From an uncultured Bacilli bacterium (GTDB lineage: Bacteria; Bacillota_I; Bacilli_A; RF39; UBA660): 64,000 bases of DNA. The notes under the pieces are model-generated. The model saw only the letters and a program-made list of their open reading frames with translations. It was not told the origin of the DNA and did no database searches. Positions 7,751 to 59,020 of the stretch are shown piece after piece. The stretch is from assembly GCA_934090935.1 (NCBI GenBank), contig CAKOKD010000001.1, forward strand, positions 290,571-354,570. Direction: 5' to 3'. Position 1 is the first letter of the stretch; each line of letters opens with the position of its first letter. Made by a program: the position numbers and the translations under genes.

Positions 7751-9061
7751 ATGAAGAGAAAGAGTGCATTAGTATTTACAATTTTATTATTAGCGGTGGG
7801 ATTTGCTGCCGTGTCAACAACTTTAGTAATAAATGGGTCTGCAAAAGTAAGTGAAAATACAGAGGATTTTTCTGTAATATTTACCAAGGCTTCATTAGAT
7901 GGAACAGATGTATATGCAAATATAGTTGATGATACTAAAAAGATAATAAATTTTTCAACAAATGAATTAAAGACAATAAATCAAACAAGTGTGTTAAATT
8001 ATGAAGTAACAAATAATTCAAGCAATTATGATGCTGAAGTTCAAGTAACTTGTAAATTAAAAGATGGTGGGTCTGCTAAATATACAAGTATCAAAAATGA
8101 ACTAGAAGGAAATGCAACAATTGTAAAAGCCAAAGAAAGCTTAAATGGAACATTAACAGTTAACTTAAAAAAAACTGCTACAGAAGAAGTAAATGAACAA
8201 TATGTTTGTGAACTAACGTTTAATGCAGTAGAGAGAACTCAGTTGGGAAATAATCCAGCTATTGATAAGCTAATATCTTTAGCTAATTCTGAGGAAATAA
8301 ATTCATATGAAAATGGAAATAAAAATCAATTATATGTTTTTAATCATGAGCAAACTAAACAAACAGAAGCCCTAAGCGACTATCGTTTTATTGGCGATAA
8401 TCCATATAATTATATAAAGTTTAGTGGTGAAACATGGAGAATATTAGGTATCTTTGATATTGATGGAGAAAAAAAGATTAAAATAATAAAAAATGATACT
8501 TTGGATAGTTCATACGCTTGGGATACTAACGGAAAAAATAATTTTATAATTTCAAGTTTAAATAATTATTTAAATGAAAATTATTATGAAACTTTGGATA
8601 AAAATTATATATCAAAAACAAAAATCTACTTAGGTGGAACTGATATGATGCAATATGTAAAGGCAAATGAATGGTATAGTCATGAAAGAAGTAATAAAGT
8701 GTATTCTGGAAACCCAAGTTATTATAATGACGCATATGTTTCTTTAATGTATCCATCGGATTTTGCTTATACTTATGCCTATGGAATTGACAATGAGTGT
8801 TTTAATAATGGATTTGGATGTGATGTTTCATCAGGAAGAACTAATAGTTGGATGTATATTGGTAAAAATATGGAAGCATTTATAACTCCTGATTCAAGTT
8901 CAAGTAATCAAATTTATAGAATGAATTCTTCCAGTGGTTATAATAAAAGTACATCTTCAACTTTAATGTATATAAGACCAGTTGTATATTTAAATAGCAA
9001 TGTGAAATTTATTTCAGGAGATGGATCAAGCACAAATCCTTATAAATTAGATACAAATTAG
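7751..9061 (+). CDS. secreted family member A: conserved N-terminal module plus lectin-like C-terminal domain
   Basis: Probable start MKRKSALVFTILLLAVGFAAV (the track's 7739 start adds MVCI). N-module is highly similar to the 14603 and 56406 genes (FSVIFTKASLDG.DVY..VDDTKKII.F......QTSVLNYEVTNNSSNYDAEV.VTC...YVCELTFNAVER). C-terminus ...WMYIG...YIRPVVYL...GSSTNPYKLDTN. Own promoter with extended -10 TGGTACAAT; no poly-G. Confidence 0.8.
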   Translation: MKRKSALVFTILLLAVGFAAVSTTLVINGSAKVSENTEDFSVIFTKASLDGTDVYANIVDDTKKIINFSTNELKTINQTSVLNYEVTNNSSNYDAEVQVTCKLKDGGSAKYTSIKNELEGNATIVKAKESLNGTLTVNLKKTATEEVNEQYVCELTFNAVERTQLGNNPAIDKLISLANSEEINSYENGNKNQLYVFNHEQTKQTEALSDYRFIGDNPYNYIKFSGETWRILGIFDIDGEKKIKIIKNDTLDSSYAWDTNGKNNFIISSLNNYLNENYYETLDKNYISKTKIYLGGTDMMQYVKANEWYSHERSNKVYSGNPSYYNDAYVSLMYPSDFAYTYAYGIDNECFNNGFGCDVSSGRTNSWMYIGKNMEAFITPDSSSSNQIYRMNSSSGYNKSTSSTLMYIRPVVYLNSNVKFISGDGSSTNPYKLDTN

Positions 9062-9097
9062 ATGAAACTAAAAAAGAATAATATATTAAAAAAACAC

Positions 9098-9125
9098 ATG
9101 ATTTCATGTGTTTTTTTTAATGTAT
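9098..9125 (+). terminator. intrinsic terminator after gene A
   Basis: AAACACATGATTTCATGTGTTT hairpin followed by a T-run. Confidence 0.65.
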
Positions 9126-9206
9126 TTTAATTTGCAAAAAGTTGTATAAAATAATTTGCAAAATTAAAAAAATTTTTTTCAAAGTAGTAATTTTCAACAA
9201 AAGAAA

Positions 9207-9240
9207 TTGACAATCGGGGGGGGTATTATAAAATAAAAAT
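9207..9240 (+). promoter_or_regulatory. family promoter with a G8 homopolymer in the spacer (TTGACA-atc-G8-TATTATAAAATA)
   Basis: G-run at 9216-9223 between a -35-like TTGACA (9207-9212) and an A/T-rich -10 region. Same architecture at 14547, 34011 and 56354. Confidence 0.6.
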
Positions 9241-9257
9241 AGATGAGGTGTGTTTAA

Positions 9258-10019
9258 ATGAAGAAAAGTGCAATAATAGTTGTAATTGTTTTTATGATGA
9301 TTGGATTTGCAGCAGTAAGTACGTCATTAATAATAAATAGTAATATAAAAGTATCAAAGAATGAAACGGACTTTGATGTATATTTTTCAAAGGCAAGATT
9401 GGATACAAAAGATGTATATGAAAGTGTAATAAGTCAAGATAAAAAGACAATAATATTTAATACAAATAATTTAAGTAAAGTAGGAGATAAACAGTACTAA
9501 CATATGAAGTAACAAATAATTCAAACAACAAGGAACTTCATTAAAACAAAATGGTACATATACAAGAATGTATGATACTGAGATTGGATATTTAGCAAGT
9601 ACATCAAGAAATATAAGTGGAATATATGATATGTCCGGTGGAGCACATGAATATATGTCAGTATATACCTTAGATAACTCTGATAATAGTGGAATAACTT
9701 TTACAAATTATGGCTCAAAGTATTATGATGTTTATAATGAATCGAGTATGACAACCAGTTACCAATGTAGAATATTAGGAGATGCAACGGAGAAATGGGG
9801 CCATTTACAACTTTGAAATCAATTGAAAGCAATAGCAGTATAAAAAGATATGTATCAAGTCGGTTTGCATCCTATGCATATTTTGTTTCCTCTTCAAGTC
9901 CATTTTTTGCACGCGGTGGTGATTATGGGCATGGTATATTTGCTGGGCAACTTTATTTTGGTGGTGCTTCTGGAGAAGCATATAGCTATGTTGGTTTTCG
10001 TCTAGTTTTAACACCTTAA
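9258..10019 (+). pseudogene. chimeric, frameshifted family pseudogene D (N-module of the 56406 type fused to the C-terminal region of the 57608 type)
   Basis: 9258-9500 encodes MKKSAIIVVIVFMMIGFAAVSTSLIIN... then stops. TYEVTNNSNN follows out of frame. 9568-10019 in two frames matches the C-terminus of the 57608 protein (TENISGVYDMSGG.HEY...YQ.RILGDAT...GFRLVLTP). Confidence 0.8.
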
Positions 10020-10030
10020 TAAAGGATGTT

Positions 10031-10061
10031 TCAATAGAAAAGAGTGAATAACTCTTTTTTT
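10031..10061 (+). repeat. 31-bp exact direct duplicate of the ileS 3' end and terminator (7272-7302)
   Basis: TCAATAGAAAAGAGTGAATAACTCTTTTTTT occurs at 7272-7302 and again at 10031-10061, bracketing R1 + gene A + pseudogene D. Confidence 0.85.
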
Positions 10062-10105
10062 CATGTATAAATGATGCTATAATAATAATAGAATAGAGGG
10101 TAATT

Positions 10106-10633
10106 ATGAAGTATGATGATTTAGTTAATATTTTATATCAAGATAATCTTAACTGGGTTTATTCAGTTATTACAACTCTAGATAAAGAAAAAATTGATAA
10201 AAAGGAAAAGTATATAAGTGATCCTTATCAATTTAATAATTTTTTAGTTCTAGGTTTCTATTTTATGAATTTATATATTATCAGTAATTTAAAGGAATAT
10301 AAATTCTATGATGCAACAAAACTTTTAACGACTGTTGTTTTTTCTGCAAGTACACATAATAAAGAAAAATTGATGGGAGTTTATAAAAAGGAAATCGATC
10401 TAAAAAGAATTGTTGAGCAATATAATTCGCTGGTAAGAAAAACGAAGGAGTTTGCGCCTACAGATGGATTAAAAGCAAGAATTGTTGCTATAGATGAGAT
10501 TTATAGAAGAATGTATGATGTGTTTAATAAAAGACATTTTGATGATTTCATCAGGGTTGTTATGTCGTCATTCCCTGAATATGAAAAAAAGATAGATCAA
10601 AGTTTAAAAGATTATGCAAAAAGAACAGTATAG
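10106..10633 (+). CDS. hypothetical protein
   Basis: ORF with AGAGGGTAATTATG start region; no recognised motifs. Confidence 0.45.
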   Translation: MKYDDLVNILYQDNLNWVYSVITTLDKEKIDKKEKYISDPYQFNNFLVLGFYFMNLYIISNLKEYKFYDATKLLTTVVFSASTHNKEKLMGVYKKEIDLKRIVEQYNSLVRKTKEFAPTDGLKARIVAIDEIYRRMYDVFNKRHFDDFIRVVMSSFPEYEKKIDQSLKDYAKRTV

Positions 10634-10645
10634 GAGGAGTTAGTC

Positions 10646-11101
10646 TTGGTAAATGATGAAAAAATAAAACAAGTGATAAGCGCCATTAAAGAAAATGGTT
10701 TAAAATCATTTAATGATGAATCGCTTGCTAAATTATTATCGATATTTACTGCTGAAGAATTTGATGAATTTCTAGAAAAGTCCTATTCTGAACTTGGTGG
10801 AGTAAGTGCAGTTGTTAGAATTAATTCAATTAGACCTTATGTTAGTTTCTTGGTAAATAAAGAACTCAATAAGATTTACAATTCGGATATATATAAGTTG
10901 TTTTTAGAATCATTAAAAAGAGGAGAATATTATGCTTATTTCAAGTCTTTAACAATAGAGGAATTAGCTAGTTTAAAAAAATATTTAACATATAATTATT
11001 CAAGCAGTGAGGAGTTAGCTAAAAGTGCAACAAAAAAAGTAATTAGTATGATTACTAAAGAGATAAGATTAAGAGAACAAAACAAAAACTTGGTTTTTTA
11101 A
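10646..11101 (+). CDS. hypothetical protein
   Basis: GGAGGAG RBS upstream; no recognised motifs. Confidence 0.45.
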   Translation: MVNDEKIKQVISAIKENGLKSFNDESLAKLLSIFTAEEFDEFLEKSYSELGGVSAVVRINSIRPYVSFLVNKELNKIYNSDIYKLFLESLKRGEYYAYFKSLTIEELASLKKYLTYNYSSSEELAKSATKKVISMITKEIRLREQNKNLVF

Positions 11102-11110
11102 CCAAGTTTT
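11082..11110. terminator. bidirectional intrinsic terminator between the 10646 ORF and rpsD
   Basis: AACTTGGTT-TTTT-AACCAAGTT hairpin with A-run upstream and T-run downstream. Confidence 0.6.
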
Positions 11111-11118
11111 ATTTTTTT

Positions 11119-14546: not shown

Positions 14547-14582
14547 TTGAAAATCGGGGGGGGGTATTATAAAATAAAAAAG
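14547..14582 (+). promoter_or_regulatory. family promoter with a G9 homopolymer (TTGAAA-atc-G9-TATTATAAAATA)
   Basis: G-run at 14556-14564. Confidence 0.6.
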
Positions 14583-14602: not shown

Positions 14603-16114
14603 ATGAAAAAGAAGAGTATGCTTATAGTAGCAATTATATTAATGTCAATTGGATTTGCTAGCATTTCAACGACATTAATAATAAACGGGAATGCAAACGT
14701 AAGTGAAAATCAAGATGACTTTTCAGTTATCTTTACAGCTGCAACATTAGATGGAAAGGATGTATATTCATCAGTAGTAGATGATACAAAGAAGATAATA
14801 ACATTTGAAACATCAGAATTAAAAACATTAAATCAAACATCAGTATTAAATTATGAAGTAACAAATAATTCAAGCAACTATGATGCAAATGTAAATGTAA
14901 CATGTGTACCAAAGGAAGGAACAATAGCAAAATATACAAGCATCAAAAATAAATTAGAAAACGAAGCAACAGTTGTAAAAGCAAAAAGTTCAGTAAATGG
15001 AACATTAACAGTAACACTAGATAAGGTAGCAACTGAAGCAGTTACAGAAGAATATACATGTAAGTTAGAATTTAATGCAGTCGAAAGAACTGAAATTGCA
15101 GTAGGAACAACTAATTTATATAATTTAATAAAAAATAATGCTGATACTAAAACCGTAATAGATTATAAGGTACGTTCAGGAGTAAGTGGAACAAATGGAA
15201 TATATACAACAACTGCTACTGAAGGTAATGTACCAGTATATTATTATAGAGGAGCAGCTGATAAAGTAAATAATAATATAATATTTAATAATATGTGTTG
15301 GAAGATAATAAGAACAACTGAAAACAATGGAGTAAAACTAATATATAACGGAACACCAACAGATGGCAAATGTGAAACTCAAACAGGAGAAGCAACTCAA
15401 ATAGGAACAAGTGCATTTAATACAAATTATACCGATAATGCATATGTTGGCTATATGTATGGAACAGCAGGAAGCAACACCTATGCAGCAACTCATGCAA
15501 ATACAAATGACTCAACAATAAAAACATATATAGATAATTGGTATAAAGCTAATTTTGATGAAATAACAACATCAAAATTGGAAGATACAGTATTCTGTAA
15601 TGATAGAAGTACAAAAGCATATGATGCAAAGACAATTGGAGAAACTTCCTTTTCATCCTTTGGTTCATTAGGATATGGGAAAAGTGCATCATTGTATGGA
15701 GCAGCACATCGAGCATCATATTGGTCGAACAATCCAAATCCAAGTTTAGTGTGTCAAAATCAAAATGATAAATTTACCGTAGATAGTAAAAATGGAAACG
15801 GAAAACTAACATATCCAGTTGGATTAATAACATTAGATGAGGTAGTGCTTGCAGGATTTAATACAAAATATTCCAATACAGGTGATTATGATGATGTAAC
15901 AAATTACTTATATACAAATAGCATTTATTGGACATTCTCCCCTGTGATGCTGGATGCTCGTGGTTATGCTTGTGTTGGTTATGTCTATAGTGCTGGCTAT
16001 GTGCACTATGACTATGTGGGCGGTGCTCGTGGGGTCCGTCCAGTAGTTTCGCTTATCAGTGGCACACTTGTAACTGGTTCTGGTACAACAACTAACCCAT
16101 ATGTGGTTGAATAA
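14603..16114 (+). CDS. secreted family member B: conserved N-module plus longer lectin-like C-terminal domain
   Basis: MKKKSMLIVAIILMSIGFASISTTLIINGNANVSEN...VTCVPK...YTCKLEFNAVER. C-terminus ...WKIIRTTENNGVKLIYNG...LITLDEVVLAG...YWTFSPV...GVRPVVSLISG...GTTTNPYVVE. Confidence 0.85.
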   Translation: MKKKSMLIVAIILMSIGFASISTTLIINGNANVSENQDDFSVIFTAATLDGKDVYSSVVDDTKKIITFETSELKTLNQTSVLNYEVTNNSSNYDANVNVTCVPKEGTIAKYTSIKNKLENEATVVKAKSSVNGTLTVTLDKVATEAVTEEYTCKLEFNAVERTEIAVGTTNLYNLIKNNADTKTVIDYKVRSGVSGTNGIYTTTATEGNVPVYYYRGAADKVNNNIIFNNMCWKIIRTTENNGVKLIYNGTPTDGKCETQTGEATQIGTSAFNTNYTDNAYVGYMYGTAGSNTYAATHANTNDSTIKTYIDNWYKANFDEITTSKLEDTVFCNDRSTKAYDAKTIGETSFSSFGSLGYGKSASLYGAAHRASYWSNNPNPSLVCQNQNDKFTVDSKNGNGKLTYPVGLITLDEVVLAGFNTKYSNTGDYDDVTNYLYTNSIYWTFSPVMLDARGYACVGYVYSAGYVHYDYVGGARGVRPVVSLISGTLVTGSGTTTNPYVVE

Positions 16115-23185: not shown

Positions 23186-24478
23186 ATGCTAAAGTATTTT
23201 AAAGAATTGGAAAATAAAGAGAATCAATATTTAGAATTAATTGAGTGGAACACAAAAAGATATTATGTTATAGGTGAAAATAATCTTCCTTTTTCTTTTT
23301 ATCAAAAGTATGCTTCAATGTTTGAGCAAATAAGAAATTTGGATTTGCTTTGTCAAAAAAGTATAGATTCTGACAAAAAAGTGCTATTTTGGGATAACGA
23401 AATGGATAATCGTCAAGAGATATTTTTAAGTGAGTTAATTGCTAAATTTTTAAATGGTCAGGATACTAGTGGATACAATTTAACTGATGCGGGTAGAGAA
23501 AGACTGGACATTTTAATGCTTCTTTTTAAAAAGGAATATCCGACTTATAATTTTGAAGATATAGAAGAATACGTTTCCGCGGTTTTTGAATTATTTATAG
23601 CAGATTCTTATTTATTTTTTTATAATGATCATGATGAAAAGAAAATAACTAAGAGATTTCTTTCTGCAGTTTTAATAGTGGCAAGATATCAAAAAAAATT
23701 AACTAAAGGGTTAGAAAATAAAATAAACCAAGCTTTAGAAGAAATGCCAGAACTTGTTGTTAAAATTCCTTTAAAGCAATTTAATCCTGTTAATTTTTCT
23801 TTACCGAATTGTTGGTTTATTACTCCTGACGGTCGATTATATAATTCTCTTGGACCGCAAGCACACAAAGAATGTAATCTAATTTATCCTTATAGACGTG
23901 TAATCAGAAATCAAGAATTACCAAGAGCAAGTGATATAAAAAAGCAAATAAGTGCTATAGAAGAATCTGGATTTATAACTTATGAAGAGTTTGAAATGTA
24001 CTTAAATTTAATTTATGATTTCCCTACAGTGTATACCCCTGAATATTATACGTTGGATAATTCACAAAAAATGTGGTATAACCATATTGAAAAACGTAGC
24101 TATAATCCTAAAATTAGATCTGTAGTAATTGGCGTTCTGAGTGCTCAAGCTAATTTTTATAGTTTTTTTGAAGAATTAAAAACATATTCGACTGATTATG
24201 AAAGAGATCTTAAATATGTTATGTCTCTTGATTTTGACGAATTGTTAGTTAGATGTTGTGGTTTTCATAAAGTTTTATCTATTCCAGAAGAATTTTATCC
24301 GATTAAAACTATTGTTACTAGTGTAATAAATTATGAAGAAGTTTTCAGAGAATACATTGAAAAAGGTTGGAAAATAAATTTTGTTCCCCCAATAGTACTA
24401 AATAAAGAACTCGGTAAATTAGAAGAATATCCAGAAGAATTTTTAACTATAAGAAAAGTTTTGAAAAGTGATAAGTAA
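23186..24478 (+). CDS. hypothetical cytoplasmic protein, 430 aa
   Basis: AGGAAAG RBS; no recognised motif. Confidence 0.45.
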   Translation: MLKYFKELENKENQYLELIEWNTKRYYVIGENNLPFSFYQKYASMFEQIRNLDLLCQKSIDSDKKVLFWDNEMDNRQEIFLSELIAKFLNGQDTSGYNLTDAGRERLDILMLLFKKEYPTYNFEDIEEYVSAVFELFIADSYLFFYNDHDEKKITKRFLSAVLIVARYQKKLTKGLENKINQALEEMPELVVKIPLKQFNPVNFSLPNCWFITPDGRLYNSLGPQAHKECNLIYPYRRVIRNQELPRASDIKKQISAIEESGFITYEEFEMYLNLIYDFPTVYTPEYYTLDNSQKMWYNHIEKRSYNPKIRSVVIGVLSAQANFYSFFEELKTYSTDYERDLKYVMSLDFDELLVRCCGFHKVLSIPEEFYPIKTIVTSVINYEEVFREYIEKGWKINFVPPIVLNKELGKLEEYPEEFLTIRKVLKSDK

Positions 24479-24698
24479 ATTTATAACAATATAAATTAAA
24501 ATGACTATAATTAAGAGTGTATAACTCTTTTTTTTGTATTTTAGGTTCTAATTTTGTCGACATTTGTCGAGTTTGTTGACAAGAAAAATTAACTATATAT
24601 AATAACCAATTGAGAAGCAGAGAAAGATGCTTATCACTTCCAACTAGAGGCTAAATATTCAGGGTTTTGGTTAAAGGAGTACTAGAGGAAGTGATACG

Positions 24699-24776
24699 AT
24701 GAAAAAAGATAATCATATAAGATTACTTTACTTAATCGTTTTAATATTGCTAGTAATAATTTTAAAATTATTATAG
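24699..24776 (+). CDS. small hydrophobic peptide (25 aa, MKKDNHIRLLYLIVLILLVIILKLL), candidate type I toxin, copy 2
   Basis: Same RBS-sequestering arrangement as R1. Confidence 0.5.
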   Translation: MKKDNHIRLLYLIVLILLVIILKLL

Positions 24777-24863
24777 GAAAAAAAGCATCTTTATTCTACT
24801 GAATAAGGATGCTACAACAAACACGTGGTAAGCATCGGCCTCAAAAGGAACTTTTGCTTCTCA
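24777..24863 (-). ncRNA. putative antisense sRNA, copy 2
   Basis: Minus-strand TTGAAA-17-TATATT upstream of GTGAGAAGCAAAAG; ends at the conserved hairpin plus U-run. Confidence 0.4.
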
Positions 24864-24917
24864 CTAAATAAAATATAACATTTTTTAAAAGTGTTTTCAA
24901 TATATAAGGTAATAATT

Positions 24918-24982
24918 ATGCTTATAGTAGCAATATTACTAATGAAGATGGAACAAGTACAAATCCATATGTAGTTTTATAA
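24918..24982 (+). pseudogene. ghost of a family gene: start fragment MLIVAILLM fused to the C-terminal remnant DGTSTNPYVVL*
   Basis: ATGCTTATAGTAGCAATATTACTAATG matches codons about 6-14 of the 14603-type gene. GATGGAACAAGTACAAATCCATATGTAGTTTTATAA in another frame matches the family C-terminal tail (GTTTNPYVVE). Confidence 0.7.
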
Positions 24983-33497: not shown

Positions 33498-33670
33498 GTG
33501 TTTTATTTTTTTAGGTTCTAATTTTGTCGACATTTGTCGGATTTATTGACAAGGTAAATAAAGTATATATAATACAAACTCGAGAAGCAGAAAAAGATGC
33601 TTATCACTTCCAAACTAGAGGCTAAATTATTCGGGGTTTTGGTTAAAGGAGTACGAGAGGAAGTGATACG

Positions 33671-33754
33671 ATGAAAAAAGATAATCATATAAGATTACTT
33701 TATCTAATCGTTTTTATATTGTTAATAATAATTTTAAAATTATTATGTCAATAA
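33671..33754 (+). CDS. small hydrophobic peptide (27 aa, MKKDNHIRLLYLIVFILLIIILKLLCQ), candidate type I toxin, copy 3
   Basis: Conserved ORF, RBS paired with the upstream TATCACTTCC. Confidence 0.5.
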   Translation: MKKDNHIRLLYLIVFILLIIILKLLCQ

Positions 33755-33838
33755 AAAAAGCATCTTTATTCTACTGAATAAGGATGCACCGCAAAATGTG
33801 GTAAGCATCAGCCTCAAAAGAAAACTTCTGCTTCTCAC
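33753..33838 (-). ncRNA. putative antisense sRNA, copy 3
   Basis: Minus-strand TTGTAA-17-TATATT then GTGAGAAGCAG; ends at the hairpin plus U7. Confidence 0.4.
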
Positions 33839-33895
33839 TAAAATAAATATAACATTTTTCAATATAAATTACAATGATAATAAATAAATACACTT

Positions 33896-34010: not shown

Positions 34011-34045
34011 TTGAAAATCGGGGGGGGTATTATAAAATAAAAAAG
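34011..34045 (+). promoter_or_regulatory. family promoter with a G8 homopolymer (TTGAAA-atc-G8-TATTATAAAATA)
   Basis: G-run at 34020-34027. Confidence 0.6.
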
Positions 34046-34065: not shown

Positions 34066-36180
34066 ATGAAGAAAACGACAATAATGCTAGTTACTGTTTT
34101 ATTTATGATAATAGGATATGCAGCATATAATGCAACTGTAAATATATATGGATTAGGTAAGATATCAGAAAATATAAGTGACTTTAAGGTATATTTAGAT
34201 AATTTAAAAGTAAATGATACAGAAAATACAGGAATAAATGATGTAAAAGATGAATTTACAATAGATAATGTAAATGGAAAAATAAGTGTAGATATAGTAA
34301 ATGATTCAACAGAATATGATACAGAAAGTTATCTTGAGTGTGCAAGTATAGTAACACCAGATAAAACTGAATGGAGATTTGATTATACAGGTGCTGAACA
34401 AACATTTACAGCACCAATGTCTGGAACATATAAGCTTGAGACATGGGGAGCTCAAGGTGGAAGTGTTGGAAACTATACTGGTGGCTATGGGTCATATTCA
34501 ATAGGTGATTTATATTTAACACAAAATAGTAAAATTTATATTAATATTGGTGGAGCTGGTACAACTGGAAAATTGGATGCATCATTTGTTGTAACTCCTG
34601 GTGGCTATAATGGAGGTGGAATAAATACTTCAGATGTCTATGGTTATGGAGCTACGGGCGGAGGAGCGACTCATATATCTACAACATCAGGTCTACTTTC
34701 AGAAAATGCGAATAATTTATCAAACTTATTAATCGTATCTGGAGGCGGCGGAGGAAGTGGGCAAGAAAGTGGATTAGGATATTGCTATGGAGGTTCCGCT
34801 GGAGGAATATCAAGCACCAAAGGTTATTCTAATCCAAATCGATATTATGCTCCAGGCGATGTTGGTACTCAAACAACAGGTTTTGCATTTGGTAAAGGCG
34901 GAGATTCAAAATCTTGGCTTGGATCCGGTGGAGCAGGTTTATATGGAGGCTATTCTGGATGTGGAGGCGCGGGAGGCTCGAGTTATATCGGAAACTCACT
35001 CTTAACAGAAAAATCAATGTACTGTTATAATTGTACTGAATCAACTGAAGAATCAACACGAACTATAAGTACTACATGCACAAGTGCAACACCAACCGAA
35101 AACTGTGCAAAACAAGGTAATGGATATGCACGTATTACTCTAGTTTCAAGTGACGAAATAGAAAAAATATCAACAGAAGTGGTAACTATAGAAGCCCAAG
35201 ATAAGAAAAAAGTAACCTTAGAAAATATAAATACAGGCAGTTTAACTTGTAAGTTAAAAGTTAATAAATTATCACGAACAACTAAAGAGGAAAAATATAT
35301 AGGTCCAACAGAATGGACATTTGATTATACAGGAAGCGAGCAAACTTTTACAGTACCAATAAGTGGAACATACAAGCTTGAAACATGGGGAGCACAAGGT
35401 GGAAATGCTATTTATACAAATTATAGTGGTACTGGTGGTAAAGGATCATATGCAGGTGGAGTAATTGAATTTAATGCAAACACAAAAATATATGTTTATG
35501 TTGGTGGAAAAGGTACGAATGGCAATAATTCAAGAGCCGCTACTTTAATTGAGGGTGGTTACAATGGAGGAGGTAACAATCAATCTTTAGATTCTGCATC
35601 ACCTGCTGGAGGCGGAGCAACCGATATTAGATTAACAAATGGATTATGGAATAACTTTGATTCTCTTAAATCTAGAATAATGGTTGCTGGAGCTGGAGGC
35701 GGATCTGGAATAGAGAATGTAGGTGCTCCAGGAGGATTGAATGCTGGAGTCTATGGAACTCTATATGGAGGAAACGGAACTTCAACTTCAGGTGGAGCAG
35801 CTGGTACTGGATATAGCCACAATAGTGGAGCAACAAACGGAACATTTGGAGTTGGTGGAAACGGTGGACGATATATCACAGGAGCTGGAGGTAGTGGTTA
35901 CTATGGCGGAGGCGGAGGAAATCATTATTCGCCAGCTACCTCCGGAGGTGGAGGCGGCGGTTCTTCTTTCATCTCAGGACATGACGGATGTGATGCAATA
36001 TCCGAAAACTCTACAGCATCAAATATAATACATACAGGTCAATCTATACATTATAGTGGATATTATTTTACTCAAACTATAATGAAGTCTGGAGACGAAA
36101 CAATGCCAAGTCATGATGGGAAAAGCACTATGACAGGAAATAGTGGTAATGGATACGCACGTATTACGTTAATAAAATAA
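34066..36180 (+). CDS. secreted glycine-rich repeat protein (family-type leader plus short N-module plus two tandem Gly-rich modules)
   Basis: MKKTTIMLVTVLFMIIGYAAY leader. Two repeats each start EW.FDYTG.EQTFT.P.SGTYKLETWGAQGG and end GNGYARITL. Runs of GGGGG, GGATDIRL and VAGAGGGSG. Confidence 0.8.
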   Translation: MKKTTIMLVTVLFMIIGYAAYNATVNIYGLGKISENISDFKVYLDNLKVNDTENTGINDVKDEFTIDNVNGKISVDIVNDSTEYDTESYLECASIVTPDKTEWRFDYTGAEQTFTAPMSGTYKLETWGAQGGSVGNYTGGYGSYSIGDLYLTQNSKIYINIGGAGTTGKLDASFVVTPGGYNGGGINTSDVYGYGATGGGATHISTTSGLLSENANNLSNLLIVSGGGGGSGQESGLGYCYGGSAGGISSTKGYSNPNRYYAPGDVGTQTTGFAFGKGGDSKSWLGSGGAGLYGGYSGCGGAGGSSYIGNSLLTEKSMYCYNCTESTEESTRTISTTCTSATPTENCAKQGNGYARITLVSSDEIEKISTEVVTIEAQDKKKVTLENINTGSLTCKLKVNKLSRTTKEEKYIGPTEWTFDYTGSEQTFTVPISGTYKLETWGAQGGNAIYTNYSGTGGKGSYAGGVIEFNANTKIYVYVGGKGTNGNNSRAATLIEGGYNGGGNNQSLDSASPAGGGATDIRLTNGLWNNFDSLKSRIMVAGAGGGSGIENVGAPGGLNAGVYGTLYGGNGTSTSGGAAGTGYSHNSGATNGTFGVGGNGGRYITGAGGSGYYGGGGGNHYSPATSGGGGGGSSFISGHDGCDAISENSTASNIIHTGQSIHYSGYYFTQTIMKSGDETMPSHDGKSTMTGNSGNGYARITLIK

Positions 36181-42516: not shown

Positions 42517-43713
42517 ATGAAAAAAAGTTTGATATTTATTATTGGTATTTTTATGTTTGCTTCATCAACTGTTTTAGCTGCTCCAACTGGTTCAAGTGGA
42601 ATAAGTTTTGGTGAATGTTATAGATTTGCTGATGGTTTTAAAACGATTGGAACAAATGAGGGAAGTTATTACTATAAATATTGCTATAGAGCAACTTGTG
42701 GAAGTGATTCTAAATATAGCTTAGATCCAATGACGACACTTTCTTCTTATCGTTGTGAAAATGGAAATTATGATCCTTATAGTCAAATCACAAGCGATGG
42801 ATGTAGCAAATATAGTGGAACTTGTAAACAAGGAAGCAATCCTTATTGTACTAGAGTAGAATTTGTTGATTGTAACAGAAAAAAAGATGGAAGTGCATAT
42901 TCTAATGGTGGAACTGTAACACCAACTCAACCATCAAATAATACAACGACGACTCCAAGCAATAATAAAACAACAACGACGAAAGCTAGTGGTGGAAGAA
43001 AAACAACAACAACTCGTCGTGCTATAACAACTGGTTTTACAGCACCTACGACTACTACAACTACAACAGTACAAATCTCAAATAATAACAATATTAAGAG
43101 TATAAAAATCAATAATCAAGATATAAGATATAAAGCTGATAAGGATACTTACTCGCTTAAACTTCCTTATGATATGGCTAATATCGACGTAACAGTAGAA
43201 CTTGAGAGCAAAAGAGCTACATATGAGGTTGTTGGTAATACAAATATGCCAAATGAAGACACAGTTGTAAAGGTTATTGTAACAGCTGAAAATGGTGATA
43301 AAAGAGAGGTCACATTTAATGTAACTCGTTATAGTGTTGAGACAAGTGATTGTACACTTGCTAATATATATATTGAAGATTATGATATTGAGTTTTCTAA
43401 AAATAAATATGAATATGCTTTAACTTTACCAAAAAATGTAAAATCATTGGATATCGTAGTTGTACCTACACAAGAACAAAGTGCAACTTATGAGATACGT
43501 GGAAATGAAAGTTTAAAAAATAAAAGTGTTATCGATATAATTGTTTTAAGCGCAGATGGAAATGAATGTAATTATCAAATAAAAATCAAAAAGACTTCTA
43601 ACACTTGGAAATATGTTCTATTGATTATATTGCTTACTGGAGCGTTAGGAACAGCTATATACTTCTTATATAAATTCTTGAAGAAAAGTAAAGGAAAATA
43701 TAAATACGAATAA
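42517..43713 (+). CDS. cell-surface protein: signal peptide, Cys-rich head, Thr-rich linker, three cadherin-like repeat domains, C-terminal TM anchor
   Basis: Signal peptide MKKSLIFIIGIFMFASSTVLA. TTTTPSNNKTTTTK...TTTTTTTV linker. About 75-aa repeats x3 (e.g. SLKLPYDMANIDVTVELESKRATYEV / ALTLPKNVKSLDIVVVPTQEQSATYEI). TM LLIILLTGALGTAIYFLY plus KK-rich tail. Confidence 0.7.
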   Translation: MKKSLIFIIGIFMFASSTVLAAPTGSSGISFGECYRFADGFKTIGTNEGSYYYKYCYRATCGSDSKYSLDPMTTLSSYRCENGNYDPYSQITSDGCSKYSGTCKQGSNPYCTRVEFVDCNRKKDGSAYSNGGTVTPTQPSNNTTTTPSNNKTTTTKASGGRKTTTTRRAITTGFTAPTTTTTTTVQISNNNNIKSIKINNQDIRYKADKDTYSLKLPYDMANIDVTVELESKRATYEVVGNTNMPNEDTVVKVIVTAENGDKREVTFNVTRYSVETSDCTLANIYIEDYDIEFSKNKYEYALTLPKNVKSLDIVVVPTQEQSATYEIRGNESLKNKSVIDIIVLSADGNECNYQIKIKKTSNTWKYVLLIILLTGALGTAIYFLYKFLKKSKGKYKYE

Positions 43714-45140: not shown

Positions 45141-46112
45141 ATGAATGTTGTAACAGCTAATGAAAATAAAAACATAATCGATAGACTAGATTTCGATATT
45201 ATAAAAAGAATAGATGGTGAGTATGAACTAACTGATTTGATGAGTAAACTTACCAATCTTTATTACAATAAAATCGTTATTGATATAACATCTATAAAGG
45301 ATTATCGAAATATGAACTTGTTTAATGAGTTAAAGAAATATGTTGATCCCAATAAGGTTATAATTCTACTTAACAGTGATTCTATTGTAAATAGTCGAGA
45401 ATATATATCCAATATGATCAAGGCTGGATTTTATAATTTCAGTCGTAACTTTGAAGGAATCAAATTTTTATATGGAACTCCAAATGATTATGAAAAAGTC
45501 AAACATTTTATTCAAGAAGATATCGATATTATTCCAATAGAAATAGAAGAAATTCCGGAGGAACCATCCCTTGCATTCACTGGCAAAAAGATTATTGGTT
45601 TAGTTGATTTAACTGATCATGCTGGGGCAAGCACACTTACAAATATGATGGTTCGACAACTTAATAACAATGGATATAAAGCTTATGGAATTGAGATGTT
45701 TAGACAAGATTTGATATATTATAGAAGCGATAGTTTATTTTCATGTATGAATAAAAATGATTTGGATATCAAACTTAGAAGTTTAAATGACGCTGAAGCA
45801 ATTATTATTGATTTAAATGAATTTGGTGAAAAAGAGAAGTATTGCGATGATATTTTGTATTTGGTTGAGCCATCCTATATTAGACTTACCAAATTGCTTA
45901 GAAAAAATAAAAATGCTTTTTTAGATCATAAGAATGATAAAATCGTTTTAAATATTAGTTTTGTAACTGAATATGATAAAAGCGATTTTGAATATGAATT
46001 AAAGTGTAAAGTATTTGATAATATTCCACCAATCAATGATAGAAACAAAAATAGCGGTGAAATCAACGATTTATTATATAAATTAGGATTCAAAAATGTA
46101 AAAAAAGTGTAA
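45141..46112 (+). CDS. TadZ/CpaE-like protein with a degenerate Walker A (receiver-like N-domain plus ParA/MinD-like fold)
   Basis: IIGLVDLTDHAGASTLTNMM sits where KGGVGKT would be; AIIIDL Walker B-like. Confidence 0.35.
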   Translation: MNVVTANENKNIIDRLDFDIIKRIDGEYELTDLMSKLTNLYYNKIVIDITSIKDYRNMNLFNELKKYVDPNKVIILLNSDSIVNSREYISNMIKAGFYNFSRNFEGIKFLYGTPNDYEKVKHFIQEDIDIIPIEIEEIPEEPSLAFTGKKIIGLVDLTDHAGASTLTNMMVRQLNNNGYKAYGIEMFRQDLIYYRSDSLFSCMNKNDLDIKLRSLNDAEAIIIDLNEFGEKEKYCDDILYLVEPSYIRLTKLLRKNKNAFLDHKNDKIVLNISFVTEYDKSDFEYELKCKVFDNIPPINDRNKNSGEINDLLYKLGFKNVKKV

Positions 46113-50198: not shown

Positions 50199-51110
50199 AT
50201 GGGTTTAATGGATAAAGTAAAGAAAATTTTGTTTGATGAGGATGAAATAGAAGTTCCTGTAAAAAGTGATGAACTACCAAAAAGAGAAGTGAAAAAAGAA
50301 AGTTTTCCTTCTAGAGGATCATTTATCAATCATCATGAAGAGGTAGAAGAAGAAAATCCAATAAAAGAAGTTATCGTTCCAAAGGAAAAAGAAGAGGTAC
50401 ATGAAGAAGTAGAGATAAAGAAAAATTTTAACTTTGCGGATGATGATGACTTTGATTATTTGCCTAAAAGAGCGAATGAAAAAAGTGAAGTACATGAGGA
50501 AGTTAAAAGTCGAATCGATATGTACAACGTATATGATGAATATAAAAGAAAAGAAAGTACTCCAACTAAAACTTTTCATGCCGGTCTTCAAGAGAACAAA
50601 GATTATAAAAAGATTATAAAGGATGAAGAACCAAGTAAGGAGAAAAGGCCTTTTAAGGTAACTCCAGTTATATCTCCAGTTTATGGTATTATTGATGAGA
50701 CAAAAGTGGAGAAAACCATTGAAAAGAAAGTGGAGTTTTCTCCAGTAAGAAATTTTGGACCTGTTAGTTATACTGATGAAAAAGTTCCAAAATTTGAAGA
50801 AAAAGAAGAAGTGGTTATACCGGAGAAAATAGAAATAACTGATGATGAAATTCAAACTTCAGGTATAGAAAATGATTATTTGGACAATAATAATATTGAG
50901 GAGTCATTTGAGTCAACTTCCGAATATGAAAAAATAAATCGTGAAGATGCATTAGAGCATGATGATTTTCAGTATACTCCTCAAAAAAATGAGATAAGTG
51001 AAGAAGAAAAACATGAAAATGAAAAGCTAGAGGATACAATTGAAACTGACCTTTTTAATCTTATTGATTCGATGTATAAGGATGATGAAGAATCAGGAGA
51101 TGAAGACTAA
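50199..51110 (+). CDS. hypothetical acidic Glu/Lys-rich protein
   Basis: GAGGAGA RBS; low-complexity E-rich sequence. Confidence 0.5.
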   Translation: MGLMDKVKKILFDEDEIEVPVKSDELPKREVKKESFPSRGSFINHHEEVEEENPIKEVIVPKEKEEVHEEVEIKKNFNFADDDDFDYLPKRANEKSEVHEEVKSRIDMYNVYDEYKRKESTPTKTFHAGLQENKDYKKIIKDEEPSKEKRPFKVTPVISPVYGIIDETKVEKTIEKKVEFSPVRNFGPVSYTDEKVPKFEEKEEVVIPEKIEITDDEIQTSGIENDYLDNNNIEESFESTSEYEKINREDALEHDDFQYTPQKNEISEEEKHENEKLEDTIETDLFNLIDSMYKDDEESGDED

Positions 51111-52729: not shown

Positions 52730-52872
52730 ATTGATGTTGATGAAGAGTTACGCCTTTGGAGTCAAATCGTATTATTCGCGTTAAGAATTATAGAGAGTAT
52801 GAGCAATCATAAATTAAGGTGGTACCACGGAGTTATTCGTCCTTAAGTAGTGATTGCTTTTTTGGTGGTGTT
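52730..52872 (+). promoter_or_regulatory. T-box riboswitch leader (tyrS operon)
   Basis: T-box sequence AAATTAAGGTGGTACCACGG at 52811-52830 followed by a U-run at about 52856-52861. Confidence 0.6.
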
Positions 52873-52876
52873 TGGT

Positions 52877-53506
52877 ATGTTAAAGAGAATTATTTTTGAT
52901 ATTGATGGAACTTTAATCGATAAAGTGGATTTCAATGAATTGGTTAAAATTGAACTTTCTGCTTTTGGTTATGAATATGATGAAATTCAATTATCCAATT
53001 ATTTATATGCTATGAATACTTATGAAAGTGAATTTATAAGGTATAATTTCAAGGATTATTTTGACTATATAAGGGAGTTAAGCAAAATAGATATAAGTAA
53101 GGAGTATATGAAAAAGTTTTTGGAAGATGCTGGTAAATTTGTTCCAGGTTATGTTCATCCTGATGTTATTTTAACTCTTCAATATCTAAAGAAAAAATAT
53201 GAACTTGTAGTTCTAACCAATTTTTTTAGATGTGTTCAATATTCGCGTTTGAAAAATTCTGGGATTCATGAATTCTTTGATGAATTTTATGGTGGGGATT
53301 TAGCGATCAAACCGATGAGTGAAGCATACGAATATGCAATAGGAAATAGAAAGAAAAGTGAATGTATGATGATTGGAGATTCTAAATCATTAGATTATGA
53401 AGGTGCAATCTGTTATGGTATGGATGCTCTTCTCTTTGATAGGGATTTAGAATATCAATCAGAAACAAAGATAAACAATTTTCATGAATTAAGAAAGAGA
53501 TTTTAA
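52877..53506 (+). CDS. HAD-superfamily hydrolase, first gene of the T-box-controlled operon
   Basis: MLKRIIFDIDGTLID (HAD motif I DxDGT); the track's GTG start at 52850 lies inside the leader. Confidence 0.7.
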   Translation: MLKRIIFDIDGTLIDKVDFNELVKIELSAFGYEYDEIQLSNYLYAMNTYESEFIRYNFKDYFDYIRELSKIDISKEYMKKFLEDAGKFVPGYVHPDVILTLQYLKKKYELVVLTNFFRCVQYSRLKNSGIHEFFDEFYGGDLAIKPMSEAYEYAIGNRKKSECMMIGDSKSLDYEGAICYGMDALLFDRDLEYQSETKINNFHELRKRF

Positions 53507-56022: not shown

Positions 56023-56200
56023 AATGTATCAAAAGACACCATTTAGAAGTCATTCTAATTGTAAATTTATACCTAGTTGTTCAAATTATGCAATAGAGGC
56101 AATCAATAAATATGGAGCGTTTAAAGGAACTTTTTTAGCTGTTAAACGAATAGTTAGATGTAACCCATTTTCTAAGGGTGGAATTGATAATGTAAAGTGA
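55994..56200 (+). CDS. yidD: membrane protein insertion efficiency factor YidD
   Basis: LIKMYQKTPFRSHSNCKFIPSCSNYAIEAI, the YidD signature. Confidence 0.8.
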   Translation: MKKILIKLIKMYQKTPFRSHSNCKFIPSCSNYAIEAINKYGAFKGTFLAVKRIVRCNPFSKGGIDNVK

Positions 56201-56240
56201 TATCTTTGATATTGCTTTTTTTATATATTTAATTTATTTA

Positions 56241-56353
56241 CACATAATAAAAATGAATATACAAAACACAACTAAAATGTTGTATAATATAAGAAACAAT
56301 AGGAGAATAAAATAAAAAAGACGACAAAAGTAATGTAAAACAAAATAATGCCC
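56241..56353 (+). promoter_or_regulatory. conserved AT-rich leader (copy of the 33896-34010 region)
   Basis: See 33896 entry. Confidence 0.45.
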
Positions 56354-56388
56354 TTGAAAATCGGGGGGGGTATTATAAAATAAAAATA
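56354..56388 (+). promoter_or_regulatory. family promoter with a G8 homopolymer (TTGAAA-atc-G8-TATTATAAAATA)
   Basis: G-run at 56363-56370. Confidence 0.6.
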
Positions 56389-56405
56389 GATGAGGTGTGT
56401 TTAAG

Positions 56406-57599
56406 ATGAAGAAAAGGAGTGCAATAATAGTTGCAATTGTTTTTATGATGATTGGATTTGCAGCAGTAAGTACGTCATTGATAATAAATGGAAATGCTAA
56501 TGTTAGCGAAAGCAATGAAGATTATTCAGTAATATTTACTAAAGCTTCATTAGATGGAGAAGATGTGTATTCAACAGCAGTAGATGATACAAAAAAGATA
56601 ATTACATTTACAAGTAAGAATCTAATGAAAGTCGGAGACACATCAACACTTACATATGAAGTAACAAATAATTCAGCAAACTATGATGCAGAAGTGCGTG
56701 TTACATGTGTACCAAAAGACGGAACAACAACAAAATATACAAGTATCAAGAATGAACTTGAAGGAAATGCAACGAAGGTATTAGCAAAAGAAAGTATAAA
56801 TGGAACATTAACAATAACACTTTCAAAACAATCAATCGAAGAAGTGAGTGAAGAATATACATGTTCGTTAGAATTCAATGCAACTGAGAGAGATGAACTT
56901 GGAGAAAATATTCAAGATCCAGTATCATTTACAACAGATTCCTGGGAGACTATTCAAAAAGCAGTTAAAATAGGAAATACAAGTAAATATAATGTAGGGG
57001 ATACAAAAGAAATAAATTTAACTAATTTTGGAACACATACAGTGCGTATATCAAATATGAGTGCATGCACAAATGGAGAAACAAGTGAAACAGCATGTGG
57101 GTTTGTAGTAGAATTTGCAGATATAATAACAAAACATACATTTAATAATACATCAACAAATGTAGGAGGTTGGAAAAATTCAGAAATACGTACATATGTA
57201 AATGGAACAATATATAATTCTTTACCAAGTGAATTACAAAATGCTATCACTTCAACAAAGGTAATATCAGGACATGGAAGTACAAGTGGAGAGACAAATT
57301 TTGAAACACAAGACAAAGTATACCTAATATCATCAAAAGAATTATACGGAACAGCGACAGTCAAAGATACTTTAAGCACTGAAACAAAGCAATTGGATTA
57401 TTATAAAAATAAAGGAGTTACTTTATTAAAATACACTGAAGCTGTAAAAAAGTATAATCTACAAGACGTAAACTGGTGGCTTCGATCAGCAACTTCCGAT
57501 ACAACAGACTTCTTTCTTGACGTAGCAACAAAGGGAGTCTGGACAAACGGAGCTTCTACTGCATTAAATGGCATTTCTCCAGCATTTAGAATAGGATAG
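56406..57599 (+). CDS. secreted family member C: conserved N-module plus lectin-like C-domain ending ...WWLRSATSD...GISPAFRIG
   Basis: TGAGGTG RBS 8 nt before ATG 56406 (the track's 56397 start is GTG). N-module is close to the 9258 pseudogene N-terminus. Confidence 0.85.
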   Translation: MKKRSAIIVAIVFMMIGFAAVSTSLIINGNANVSESNEDYSVIFTKASLDGEDVYSTAVDDTKKIITFTSKNLMKVGDTSTLTYEVTNNSANYDAEVRVTCVPKDGTTTKYTSIKNELEGNATKVLAKESINGTLTITLSKQSIEEVSEEYTCSLEFNATERDELGENIQDPVSFTTDSWETIQKAVKIGNTSKYNVGDTKEINLTNFGTHTVRISNMSACTNGETSETACGFVVEFADIITKHTFNNTSTNVGGWKNSEIRTYVNGTIYNSLPSELQNAITSTKVISGHGSTSGETNFETQDKVYLISSKELYGTATVKDTLSTETKQLDYYKNKGVTLLKYTEAVKKYNLQDVNWWLRSATSDTTDFFLDVATKGVWTNGASTALNGISPAFRIG

Positions 57600-57607
57600 T
57601 GATTAGT

Positions 57608-59020
57608 ATGAAGAGAAATAAAATAATAACATTAATTCTTGTAATATTTGTATTCGGAATATCAGTAGCATATGCAGCAGATATAATATTAAGTGAAGAA
57701 GTATATTTTGATAATAAAAATTCAAATTTGAGTTCAACAAATGTACAAGATGCAATAGATGAAATAAATGAAAAAGTATTGTTAACAAAATCATGTTCAA
57801 GTGATGTAGAAGAACCAAAAGTAAGTGATGGATTAATACCAGTAACTATAGCAAATGATGGAACAGTAACATATGCCGATACAAGTAAGAGATGGTATGA
57901 CTATTGTAATAAAGTTTGGGCAAATGCAGTAATACTTGAAGATGGTGTAAGTTATAATGTAGGAGATACAATAAAAGAAGATGATATTCAAAGTTATTTT
58001 GTATGGATACCAAAATACAAGTACAAACTTTGGAATGTAGATACACCAATAGAAAAAACACACGAAATAGATATAATATTTGATGCAAAGGATACAATAG
58101 ATGTAGAAGGAGTATCATGTAAAACACCGATGACAAGTGGAGATTCAGGAAACTGTAAAAATGGAGAATATATGACACATCCAGCATTTGTAAGTATGGG
58201 AGTGAATGGATTCTGGGTAGGAAAGTTTGAAACTGGATATAAAGGAGCGACAAACGTTTCTTCTGGTCGAGTAAATTCAAGGGATACAAGTAAAGTAATA
58301 ATAAAACCAAATGTATATAGTTGGAGAGGCATAACTGTATATAATGCATTTAGTGCAAGTTATAATTATAACCGAGAAATGAATTCACACATGATAAAAA
58401 ATACCGAGTGGGGAGCAGTTGCATATTTAAGTCACTCAAAATATGGAATAAGTAAAAAAATAAACATTAATAATAACAGTTCCTTTAAAACAGGATATTC
58501 AGCTCTTTTATCAACAAGTCAACATATATATCCTGGAGATTATGGGGATGGCGCAAGTTATAATTCTTTCTATAATACAAATGTAGGTTATAAAGCAAGT
58601 ACAACGGAAAATATAAGTGGTGTATATGATATGTCTGGTGGAACTCATGAGTACACTGCTTCATATGTAAATGGAAAACCAGGTACAAGTGGATTTACAA
58701 CTGCAACAATTGCAAACAGTGATTCAAAATATTTTGATATATATAATGCATCTTCTTCAGTTACATCTTATCAATATAGAATATTAGGAGATGCAACTGG
58801 TGAATTAGGACCATTTAAACGATATGTAGATGCAGATAATACCTCTAGAGGTCATAATGGTTGGTATGGCGAACATTCTGATTTCATTGATTCTTCTTAT
58901 CCTTGGTTCATTCGTGGAGGTTATTATTGCTATGGAGTGCTTGCAAGTCAATTTTATTTTAATAGGTATACTGGAGCTGTTGATTTAAACATTGGTTTCC
59001 GTATAGTTTTAGCTCCATAA
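57608..59020 (+). CDS. secreted protein E, co-transcribed with C: Sec signal peptide (VAYA/AD), unique N-region, lectin-like C-region ending GFRIVLAP
   Basis: Starts 9 nt after the stop of C. Its C-terminal 150 aa are the template of the 9568-10019 pseudogene segment. Motifs HPAF...GFWVGKFE, EWGAVAYL, PWFIRGGYYCYG. Confidence 0.8.
   Translation: MKRNKIITLILVIFVFGISVAYAADIILSEEVYFDNKNSNLSSTNVQDAIDEINEKVLLTKSCSSDVEEPKVSDGLIPVTIANDGTVTYADTSKRWYDYCNKVWANAVILEDGVSYNVGDTIKEDDIQSYFVWIPKYKYKLWNVDTPIEKTHEIDIIFDAKDTIDVEGVSCKTPMTSGDSGNCKNGEYMTHPAFVSMGVNGFWVGKFETGYKGATNVSSGRVNSRDTSKVIIKPNVYSWRGITVYNAFSASYNYNREMNSHMIKNTEWGAVAYLSHSKYGISKKININNNSSFKTGYSALLSTSQHIYPGDYGDGASYNSFYNTNVGYKASTTENISGVYDMSGGTHEYTASYVNGKPGTSGFTTATIANSDSKYFDIYNASSSVTSYQYRILGDATGELGPFKRYVDADNTSRGHNGWYGEHSDFIDSSYPWFIRGGYYCYGVLASQFYFNRYTGAVDLNIGFRIVLAP

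Follow-up and report, generated by a model that had tools for sequence, protein, structure and literature searches.

A modular family of predicted surface proteins with poly-G promoter tracts in an uncultured gut Bacilli bacterium

The Vlp proteins of Mycoplasma hyorhinis and the Vsp proteins of Mycoplasma bovis are lipoproteins with a lipobox and repetitive, unstructured C-terminal regions. Each vlp gene is switched by a homopolymer (poly-A) tract in its promoter spacer, recombination yields chimeric genes, and slippage of a promoter tract also switches Neisseria meningitidis porA. Likewise, in Treponema pallidum the length of a poly-G tract in the promoter controls transcription of tp0126 and tpr genes, with a 17-nt spacer being optimal (PMC7864442). 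Here we analyzed a 64-kb stretch of DNA (the window; contig CAKOKD010000001.1 of an uncultured Bacilli bacterium) containing scattered paralogous genes that share an N-terminal module (N-module) of ~165 residues and differ in their C-terminal modules (C-modules), most of them preceded by a promoter with a run of eight or nine G. We infer that they probably encode a dispersed, recombining repertoire of exported surface proteins, in which a constant export and stalk module carries swappable binding heads. The intact genes, together with one neighbor that carries a related type of C-module, are the following:

7751-9061, plus strand: g7751, 436 amino acids; N-module (residues 1-165) and a C-module of the g14603 class (putatively divergent DUF6273-like); conventional promoter.
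14603-16114, plus strand: g14603, 503 amino acids; N-module and a 338-residue, putatively divergent DUF6273-like C-module ending in GVRPVVSL...GSGTTTNPYVVE.
34066-36180, plus strand: g34066, 704 amino acids; N-module half (1-94), Gly-rich insert, N-module half (346-412) and Gly-rich part (433-703), as predicted by profile matches.
56406-57599, plus strand: g56406, 397 amino acids; N-module and a bona fide DUF6273 domain (residues 240-396).
57608-59020, plus strand: g57608, 470 amino acids; Sec-type leader (…VAYA/AD) and a weakly FGE-sulfatase-like C-terminal part ending in GFRIVLAP.

Residues 1-165 of g7751, g14603, and g56406 share 52-68% identity (E 1e-65 to 1e-70, tblastn within the window), a far better alignment than AT-rich, low-complexity sequence would give. 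This bears out the shared two-cysteine module proposed for these genes in a preliminary description of the window; the two cysteines, C101 and C153, are each at least 90% conserved in 60 diverse homologues. The module has no Pfam or NCBIfam model according to searches of the window proteins, PDB sequence and profile searches with it returned nothing significant, and no database source names any family member checked. It begins with a basic n-region (MKKK) and an 11-residue hydrophobic core with a mean Kyte-Doolittle hydropathy of 3.15. In the 60-sequence alignment the core is followed by G17-F18-A19, conserved at 97-98%, and then by x-V-S-T-T-L-x-I-N-G, and residues 17-29 form the best-conserved stretch of the module (3.37 versus 2.27 bits per column). 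The basic n-region, hydrophobic h-region, and small residues at -3/-1 are those of a Sec-type signal peptide or signal anchor. There is no lipobox, as neither any window member nor the alignment consensus has a cysteine within residues 1-40. The C-termini of the window proteins (…NPYVVE, …NPYKLDTN, …PAFRIG, …YARITLIK, and …FRIVLAP) lack an LPXTG motif followed by a hydrophobic tail.

The AlphaFold2 (AF2) model of the N-module, built from the 60-sequence alignment, had a mean predicted local distance difference test (pLDDT) score of 89 and consists of a helix (residues 2-28), a linker of lower confidence, and an eight-strand beta-sandwich (residues 42-160). Its structural neighbors were generic immunoglobulin (Ig)-like matches only, among them PapD-like/ASH/MSP domains, the chaperone-usher pilin domains of PapG and CfaB, and envelope proteins of white spot syndrome virus (helix plus barrel); the Sulfolobus AAP pilin (helix plus sandwich) was a weak neighbor (E 0.05, rank 46). 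With matches of this generic kind, the module was not placed in the TasA, PapD-like, or pilin families. From its sequence, we conclude that the N-module probably serves in export: its N-terminal part would be either a signal anchor or a signal peptide that is cleaved to leave a conserved arm, and an Ig-like stalk follows in both cases.

The GFA motif suits the -3/-1 rule of signal peptidase I (SPase I), but the conservation past GFA is unlike that of an ordinary signal peptide. A segment that is conserved above the fold itself is unusual for the flank of a putative cleavage site, and it raises the question of whether the N-module is a polymerizing unit. The arm AVSTTLxING, which has an alternating hydrophobic pattern, could act as a donor strand after cleavage at GFA↓A, or the uncleaved helix could pack as in archaeal type IV pilins, so that an Ig-like fiber would display the C-modules. 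The pilin and PapD-like chaperone matches among the structural neighbors fit this idea. On the other hand, the N-module matched neither the TasA/SipW-cognate signal class (TIGR04088) nor the TasA fold. It also lacks the class III signal of type IV prepilins: the motif G↓F(T/S)L(I/L)E is absent, there is no equivalent of E5, no NCBIfam prepilin model matched, and the hydrophobic core lies N-terminal to GFA, unlike the class III prepilin order. Moreover, no assembly genes were seen adjoining any copy of the family, and C-modules of up to 2,300 residues would be awkward on every subunit of a fiber. We therefore regard a polymerizing N-module as improbable. A wider speculation, which we also rate as rather unlikely, is that GFA-x-VSTTLxING is a new N-terminal sorting or assembly signal of these uncultured Bacilli, acting through a dedicated peptidase, donor strand, or helix; an Ig-like fiber or lattice with poly-G-switched lectin-like and Gly-rich heads would then provide sortase-independent display.

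The preliminary description had placed most of the C-modules in the DUF1566/Lcl_C or Fibrobacter major paralogous type of lectin-like domain. This label was wrong: no window protein matched Lcl_C (PF07603) or Fib_succ_major at E≤1. Lectin-like character remains reasonable on other grounds. The C-module of g56406 is a DUF6273 domain (PF19789; 80.5 bits, above the Pfam gathering cutoff of 23.5; E 1.7e-22; profile positions 19-170 of 172 over residues 240-396), and a precomputed annotation of this protein gives the domain as well. Below the threshold, g14603 scored 19-20.1 bits, covering only the C-terminal third of the profile (positions 120-170), and g7751 scored 12.8 bits (E 0.11). The C-modules of g7751 and g14603 are homologous to each other (hhalign 93%, E 3e-7, 246 columns), and their class aligned with the g56406 profile only at E 0.02-0.03; pairs other than g7751 with g14603 showed no significant similarity (E 0.02-0.09 overall). 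Hence, the common C-terminal pattern described earlier holds for g7751 and g14603 but is not established for the other pairs. Because 8 of 20 homologues of the g14603/g7751 class match DUF6273 (best E 2.9e-6), we interpret this class as a putative divergent and enlarged DUF6273 relative. PDB sequence and profile searches with the g14603 class and with g57608 found nothing significant, and an AF2 model of the g14603 C-module, built from 13 sequences, was unusable (pLDDT 32). The DUF6273 fold reportedly resembles that of C-type lectins (PMC10743442), which makes membership of the lectin superfamily a reasonable guess for these modules.

The remaining N-module gene, g34066, belongs to a different C-module class. 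Its product matched the ALK/LTK Gly-rich domain (PF12810; gathering cutoff 24.5 bits) with 273.3 bits in two stretches and shares residues 1-100 with the family at 27-32% identity (E 1e-7, tblastn). A hidden Markov model (HMM) of the N-module matched residues 1-94 (E 1.9e-14) and, weakly (8 bits), residues 346-412; the two pieces are collinear and the second includes the second cysteine, and the first Gly-rich domain therefore seems to interrupt the Ig module. The alignments suggest that g34066 is probably a full family member with one Gly-rich domain inserted into its Ig module and another behind it.

In g57608 the N-module HMM found no N-module, in agreement with the preliminary description, and the protein has no Pfam match. 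It is not a variable member of the family but belongs to a tightly conserved orthologue group of a single architecture (~470 residues, 66-98% identity). FGE-sulfatase (PF03781) matched weakly in 13 of 32 orthologues (best E 0.0024) and not at E≤1 in g57608 itself, and the orthologue profile aligned its motifs …NTEWGAVA… and …YDMSGG.(H/W)EY… weakly to PDB entry 5vf4 (E 0.76). As g57608 starts 9 nt after g56406, the two genes are probably co-transcribed.

The 57608-type C-module can nevertheless be joined to the N-module, as proposed earlier from a pseudogene and now also seen in intact genes of other genomes. One degraded family locus and a probable second one are present in the window:

9258-10019, plus strand: pseudogene; N-module residues 3-78, frameshifts, a putative internal deletion of ~350 codons, and the last ~155 residues of a 57608-type C-module.
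24917-24982, plus strand: ghost; leader fragment MLIVAILLM joined out of frame to the C-terminal tail EDGTSTNPYVVL, followed by a stop codon.

In the pseudogene, tblastn identified residues 3-78 of the N-module at 51-62% identity, followed by a frameshift and a short out-of-frame piece of the module; its 3' part, in two further frames, resembles residues 316-470 of g57608 (37-52% identity, E 1e-28). It is collinear with intact genes of 545-766 codons in related genomes that combine the N-module with a 57608-type domain (L028_+963, P0169, P0136, and P0258), which identifies it as a degenerate copy that has lost an internal segment. The ghost has an 18-nt exact match to nt 15-32 of g14603, and its tail, in another frame, resembles the C-termini of g14603 and g7751 (…GTTTNPYVVE and stop). 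A family start and tail at this locus, as claimed before, are plausible, but the matches are short; the ghost is probably the remnant of a family gene after internal deletion. We also observed a 198-residue relative (P0190) in which the N-module is fused in frame at residue ~73 (…TSEL) to the middle of DUF6273 (…SELQNVI…). The junction lies at a short motif shared by both parts, and its sequence suggests an internal deletion that kept the reading frame, comparable to the events behind the pseudogene and the ghost.

We then asked how far the family extends beyond the window. A profile search with the N-module against 1.84 billion representatives identified 1,234 clusters (at 50% identity), 666 of them at E≤1e-10. 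The 150 best hits listed are to proteins of 77-2,446 residues, and in nearly all of them the match begins at residue 1 or close to it. The commonest relatives (~283 residues) bear a Cys-rich C-module that is not present in the window, and a repeated homologue search with a diverse profile again returned mainly this subfamily. Related metagenome-assembled genomes (MAGs) each contain at least 21-22 copies of the N-module. The family and its promoters fragment short-read assemblies, and these copy numbers are therefore underestimates: 25 of 62 related loci abut contig ends, and one metagenome contig (L186) ends exactly within the poly-G tract of the g34066 promoter.

The domains behind the N-module are diverse, which supports the earlier view of a constant N-terminal module with swappable C-modules. 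Among 101 full-length representatives, the ALK/LTK Gly-rich domain was the most frequent (25), followed by Listeria-Bacteroides repeats (14), DUF285 (12), CarboxypepD_reg (11), and DUF6273 (7), along with several types of leucine-rich repeat (LRR) and one each of Laminin_G_3, F5/8-type-C, Lcl_C, and Big_1. No cytoplasmic enzyme domain was found among the C-modules of these representatives, which by their predicted domain types are typical extracellular binding or repeat domains. The window modules also occur in other architectures: the 57608-type domain sits behind an N-module in at least five proteins of other genomes, the g7751-type module is present sixfold in one protein of 2,446 residues, and the g14603-type module terminates proteins of 1,199 and 1,917 residues. 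Together with the nesting in g34066, these arrangements point to module exchange.

The poly-G promoter tracts of the family are new relative to the preliminary description. The window contains exactly four runs of G or C of at least 6 nt, whereas 0.045 would be expected from its composition, and all four are G8 or G9 tracts in family promoters. A repeat search of the window showed conservation of the 5' flanks, and a consensus scan called the following promoter-like sites:

9207-9234, plus strand: pseudogene promoter; TTGACA-16-TAAAAT with G8 at 9216-9223 in the spacer.
14547-14575, plus strand: g14603 promoter; TTGAAA-17-TAAAAT with G9 at 14556-14564 in the spacer.
34011-34038, plus strand: g34066 promoter; TTGAAA-16-TAAAAT with G8 at 34020-34027 in the spacer.
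56354-56381, plus strand: g56406 promoter; TTGAAA-16-TAAAAT with G8 at 56363-56370; 98% identical to the pseudogene promoter.

The tracts share the setting TTGA(A/C)A-ATC-Gn-TATTA-TAAAAT, 35-45 nt upstream of family start codons, and thus all four lie in the spacer, as in phase-variable promoters with simple sequence repeats. By analogy, this layout matches that of known slipped-strand promoter switches. At the g14603 locus the tract differs between samples: it is G9 here and G8 in another sample (L183), with identical protein and flanks.

Taken together, these observations suggest the following model. Each protein would begin with the N-module, that is, the MKKK n-region, the hydrophobic core, G-F-A-x-V-S-T-T-L-x-I-N-G, and the two-cysteine Ig-like stalk, with the GFA motif serving either as an SPase I site (GFA↓A) followed by a conserved arm or as the second half of a signal-anchor helix. 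Behind the stalk would stand interchangeable ligand-binding heads, in the window of the DUF6273 (C-type-lectin-like) and ALK/LTK Gly-rich types and elsewhere with LRR/DUF285, Listeria-Bacteroides repeats, FGE-sulfatase-like domains, and others. Recombination between the conserved 5' parts, or deletion between them, may generate new combinations and leave debris such as the pseudogene and the ghost. Most genes would be transcribed from their own sigma-A-type promoter with G8 or G9 in a -35/-10 spacer of 16 or 17 nt, and slipped-strand changes of the tract could tune or switch transcription gene by gene, which we consider plausible. As an outcome, the population would display a varying subset of binding modules.

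Several points weigh against this model. Export and cleavage at GFA are predictions from sequence features, and the lectin fold of the main C-module class is putative (AF2 model with pLDDT 32). The promoter of g7751 is an ordinary one without a poly-G tract, and a shift of the spacer from 16 to 17 nt would usually modulate rather than silence a promoter. Furthermore, G8 is present in ~90% of ~61 family promoters. The same motif ahead of 38 paralogues in related genomes has G8 in 37 cases and G6 in one; promoters on metagenome contigs have G8 in 15, G7 in 2, and G6 in 2 of 19 cases, in addition to interrupted variants, some of which keep a length of 8 nt (GGTGGGGG). The metagenome pattern scan was loose, with ~22 of 120 returned stretches being family promoters.

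The dominance of G8 and the interrupted 8-nt variants suggest that G8 may be a conserved spacer or regulator site instead of a hypermutable switch. The tracts would then be a fixed promoter element (a spacer or a contact for a regulator or sigma factor) that co-regulates the family, and diversity would come from gene content and recombination only. The flanking motif TTGAAAATC…TATTATAAAAT, which is as conserved as the tract, agrees with this alternative, and it is compatible with the rest of the model. However, a run of 8-9 G is intrinsically unstable in a genome of 27% G+C, variants with G6, G7, and G9 do occur, and one length variant was found at an otherwise identical locus. The dominance of G8 is also double-edged and could reflect either a conserved promoter element or a majority 'low' state at many loci: if few of the ~20 or more genes are expressed per cell, the length seen in consensus assemblies would at every locus be that of the majority, off or low state. 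We consider a fixed element a real, though lesser, possibility, and retain the tuning of a surface repertoire by tract length as a plausible part of the model.

The window is part of the chromosome of an uncultured low-GC, small-genome gut Bacilli lineage. Its G+C content is 27% and almost all genes are on the plus strand. The nearest genomes are MAGs labeled 'uncultured Bacilli bacterium' and 'Firmicutes bacterium CAG:582', and proteins identical to g14603, g56406, and g34066 are present in human-gut assemblies with unchanged gene neighbors. The genome size of the lineage is probably ~1.3-1.4 Mb, the longest contigs with family genes being 1.35-1.42 Mb. Pfam searches identified ordinary chromosomal genes in the window, including those for a uridine kinase-like protein, GAPDH, isoleucyl-tRNA synthetase (IleRS; preceded by a T-box leader), ribosomal protein S4, a GH31 glycosidase, an ABC/FtsX pair, EzrA, TrpRS, GluRS, RNase J, DnaD/DnaI-like proteins, TyrRS, and FtsW/RodA. 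The family genes are scattered singly amid these housekeeping genes (IleRS, S4, GH31, EzrA, TrpRS, RNase J, TyrRS, and FtsW).

This setting bears on the question of whether the genes are derived from phage receptor-binding or tail-fiber genes or are targets of a diversity-generating retroelement (DGR). DUF6273 domains have been described in the target proteins of phage DGRs (PMC10743442), FGE-type lectin folds are common in proteins of these kinds, and Gly-rich and lectin-like modules are typical of phage fibers. Single genes amid housekeeping genes do not fit such an origin, and an N-terminal signal or anchor is foreign to virions. Searches for the N-module in 50,697 phage and 72,556 plasmid records gave no match, and a phage or plasmid origin was rejected on this basis. 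A DGR was rejected as well, as the window has no template/variable-repeat pair and the pseudogene differs from g57608 by mismatches of every type, with no adenine specificity. We thus consider a phage or DGR derivation very improbable.

Other features of the window lie outside the family. The GC skew is steadily positive up to ~59 kb; at 59000-64000 several genes are on the minus strand and the skew falls (0.10), which may mark the approach to a replication-strand switch. The Rfam T-box of the IleRS leader is at 3957-4156. A 65-nt segment at 52804-52868 is 75% identical to 4113-4177, the 3' part of this leader, and lies upstream of the open reading frame (ORF) 52850-53506 and the TyrRS gene; it may be a second T-box below the Rfam gathering score. 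The ORFs at 42517-43713, 45141-46112, 50199-51110, 10106-11101, and 23186-24478 have no or weak Pfam matches, one of them to a Cadherin-like beta-sandwich, and could be additional lineage-specific proteins, some perhaps on the surface.

We also noticed a repeat of ~370 nt, with three copies that are 73-96% identical, each immediately upstream of a family locus:

7308-7680, plus strand: copy 1; consensus promoter, structured 5' untranslated region (UTR), 25-residue hydrophobic ORF, and convergent antisense terminator.
24538-24906, plus strand: copy 2; small ORF at 24699-24776, MKKDNHIRLLYLIVLILLVIILKLL.
33508-33880, plus strand: copy 3; promoter TTGACA-16-TATAAT at 33546-33573 (12 of 12 consensus positions), 27-residue ORF, and antisense promoter running from 33874 to 33846.

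In most of 14 related loci the repeat likewise precedes N-module genes, and no Rfam family matched it. It carries a promoter with 12 of 12 consensus positions, the Shine-Dalgarno region is predicted to be base-paired with the 5' UTR (fold z = -5.9), its conserved ORF encodes a hydrophobic peptide of 25-27 residues (MKKDNHIRLLYLIVFILLIIILKLL), and it has a convergent antisense promoter and a terminator predicted to function on the minus strand only. In these predicted features the repeat resembles type I toxin-antitoxin modules.

The small-genome gut Bacilli of this lineage are known from metagenomes only. With at least 20 genes in a genome of ~1.3-1.4 Mb and an unannotated domain in more than 1,200 clusters, the family is likely to be the principal means by which they interact with host glycans, other microbes, or phages, and the N-module merits a domain-family entry. 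Two related orders, RFN20 and ML615J-28, to which we do not assign the organism, were reported to lack sortases, a lack interpreted as 'reduced surface protein expression' (PMC10868615). If confirmed, a modular repertoire anchored at the N-terminus would revise this view, and the poly-G promoters, if they are true switches, would represent contingency loci in a lineage of commensal Firmicutes.

Compared with described systems, the family is closest in organization to Vlp and Vsp, which also belong to host-associated, small-genome relatives of Bacilli and are multigene families with a conserved 5' leader and divergent C-terminal parts. Unlike these, the proteins studied here have no leader cysteine and combine a predicted Ig-like stalk with folded, Pfam-recognizable binding domains; the tract is poly-G instead of poly-A, and the genes are dispersed instead of forming one locus. 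The T. pallidum tpr and tp0126 genes likewise encode surface-protein paralogues, and their promoters contain, or lie close to, a G tract of ~8-9 nt; in tp0126 this tract is located between -35 and -10 (PMC7864442). Their products are unrelated spirochete outer-membrane beta-barrels, and for them both the variation in tract length and the resulting change in transcription have been measured, compared with one inter-sample polymorphism here. The variable proteins of phage DGRs (tentaclins, Mtd-like) resemble g56406 in its DUF6273 domain and g14603 and g7751 as putative divergent relatives; here, however, no template repeat, reverse transcriptase, or phage context was seen, and diversity would arise by paralogy and module exchange instead of mutagenic retrohoming. 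DUF1566/Lcl_C and Fibrobacter major paralogous proteins have a similar terminal strand pattern (…W..S…G…VRPV), and the concept of an extensive repertoire of lectin-like paralogues applies to them as well. In comparison with the Gly-rich domain of ALK/LTK, the domains found here are bacterial, predicted to be extracellular, and tandem or nested, with one copy apparently inside the Ig-like N-module. Internalins and MSCRAMMs also have an N-terminal export signal followed by Ig-like and LRR or repeat binding modules, but the window members lack a C-terminal LPXTG motif or wall-binding module, and conservation is concentrated in their N-terminal part, the hydrophobic segment included. Hence, surface families of paralogues with a shared, conserved leader and homopolymer tracts in their promoters are a known kind of system, to which this family belongs, while the N-module, its joining to folded lectin-like, Gly-rich, and LRR heads, and its expansion in uncultured gut Bacilli appear to be undescribed.

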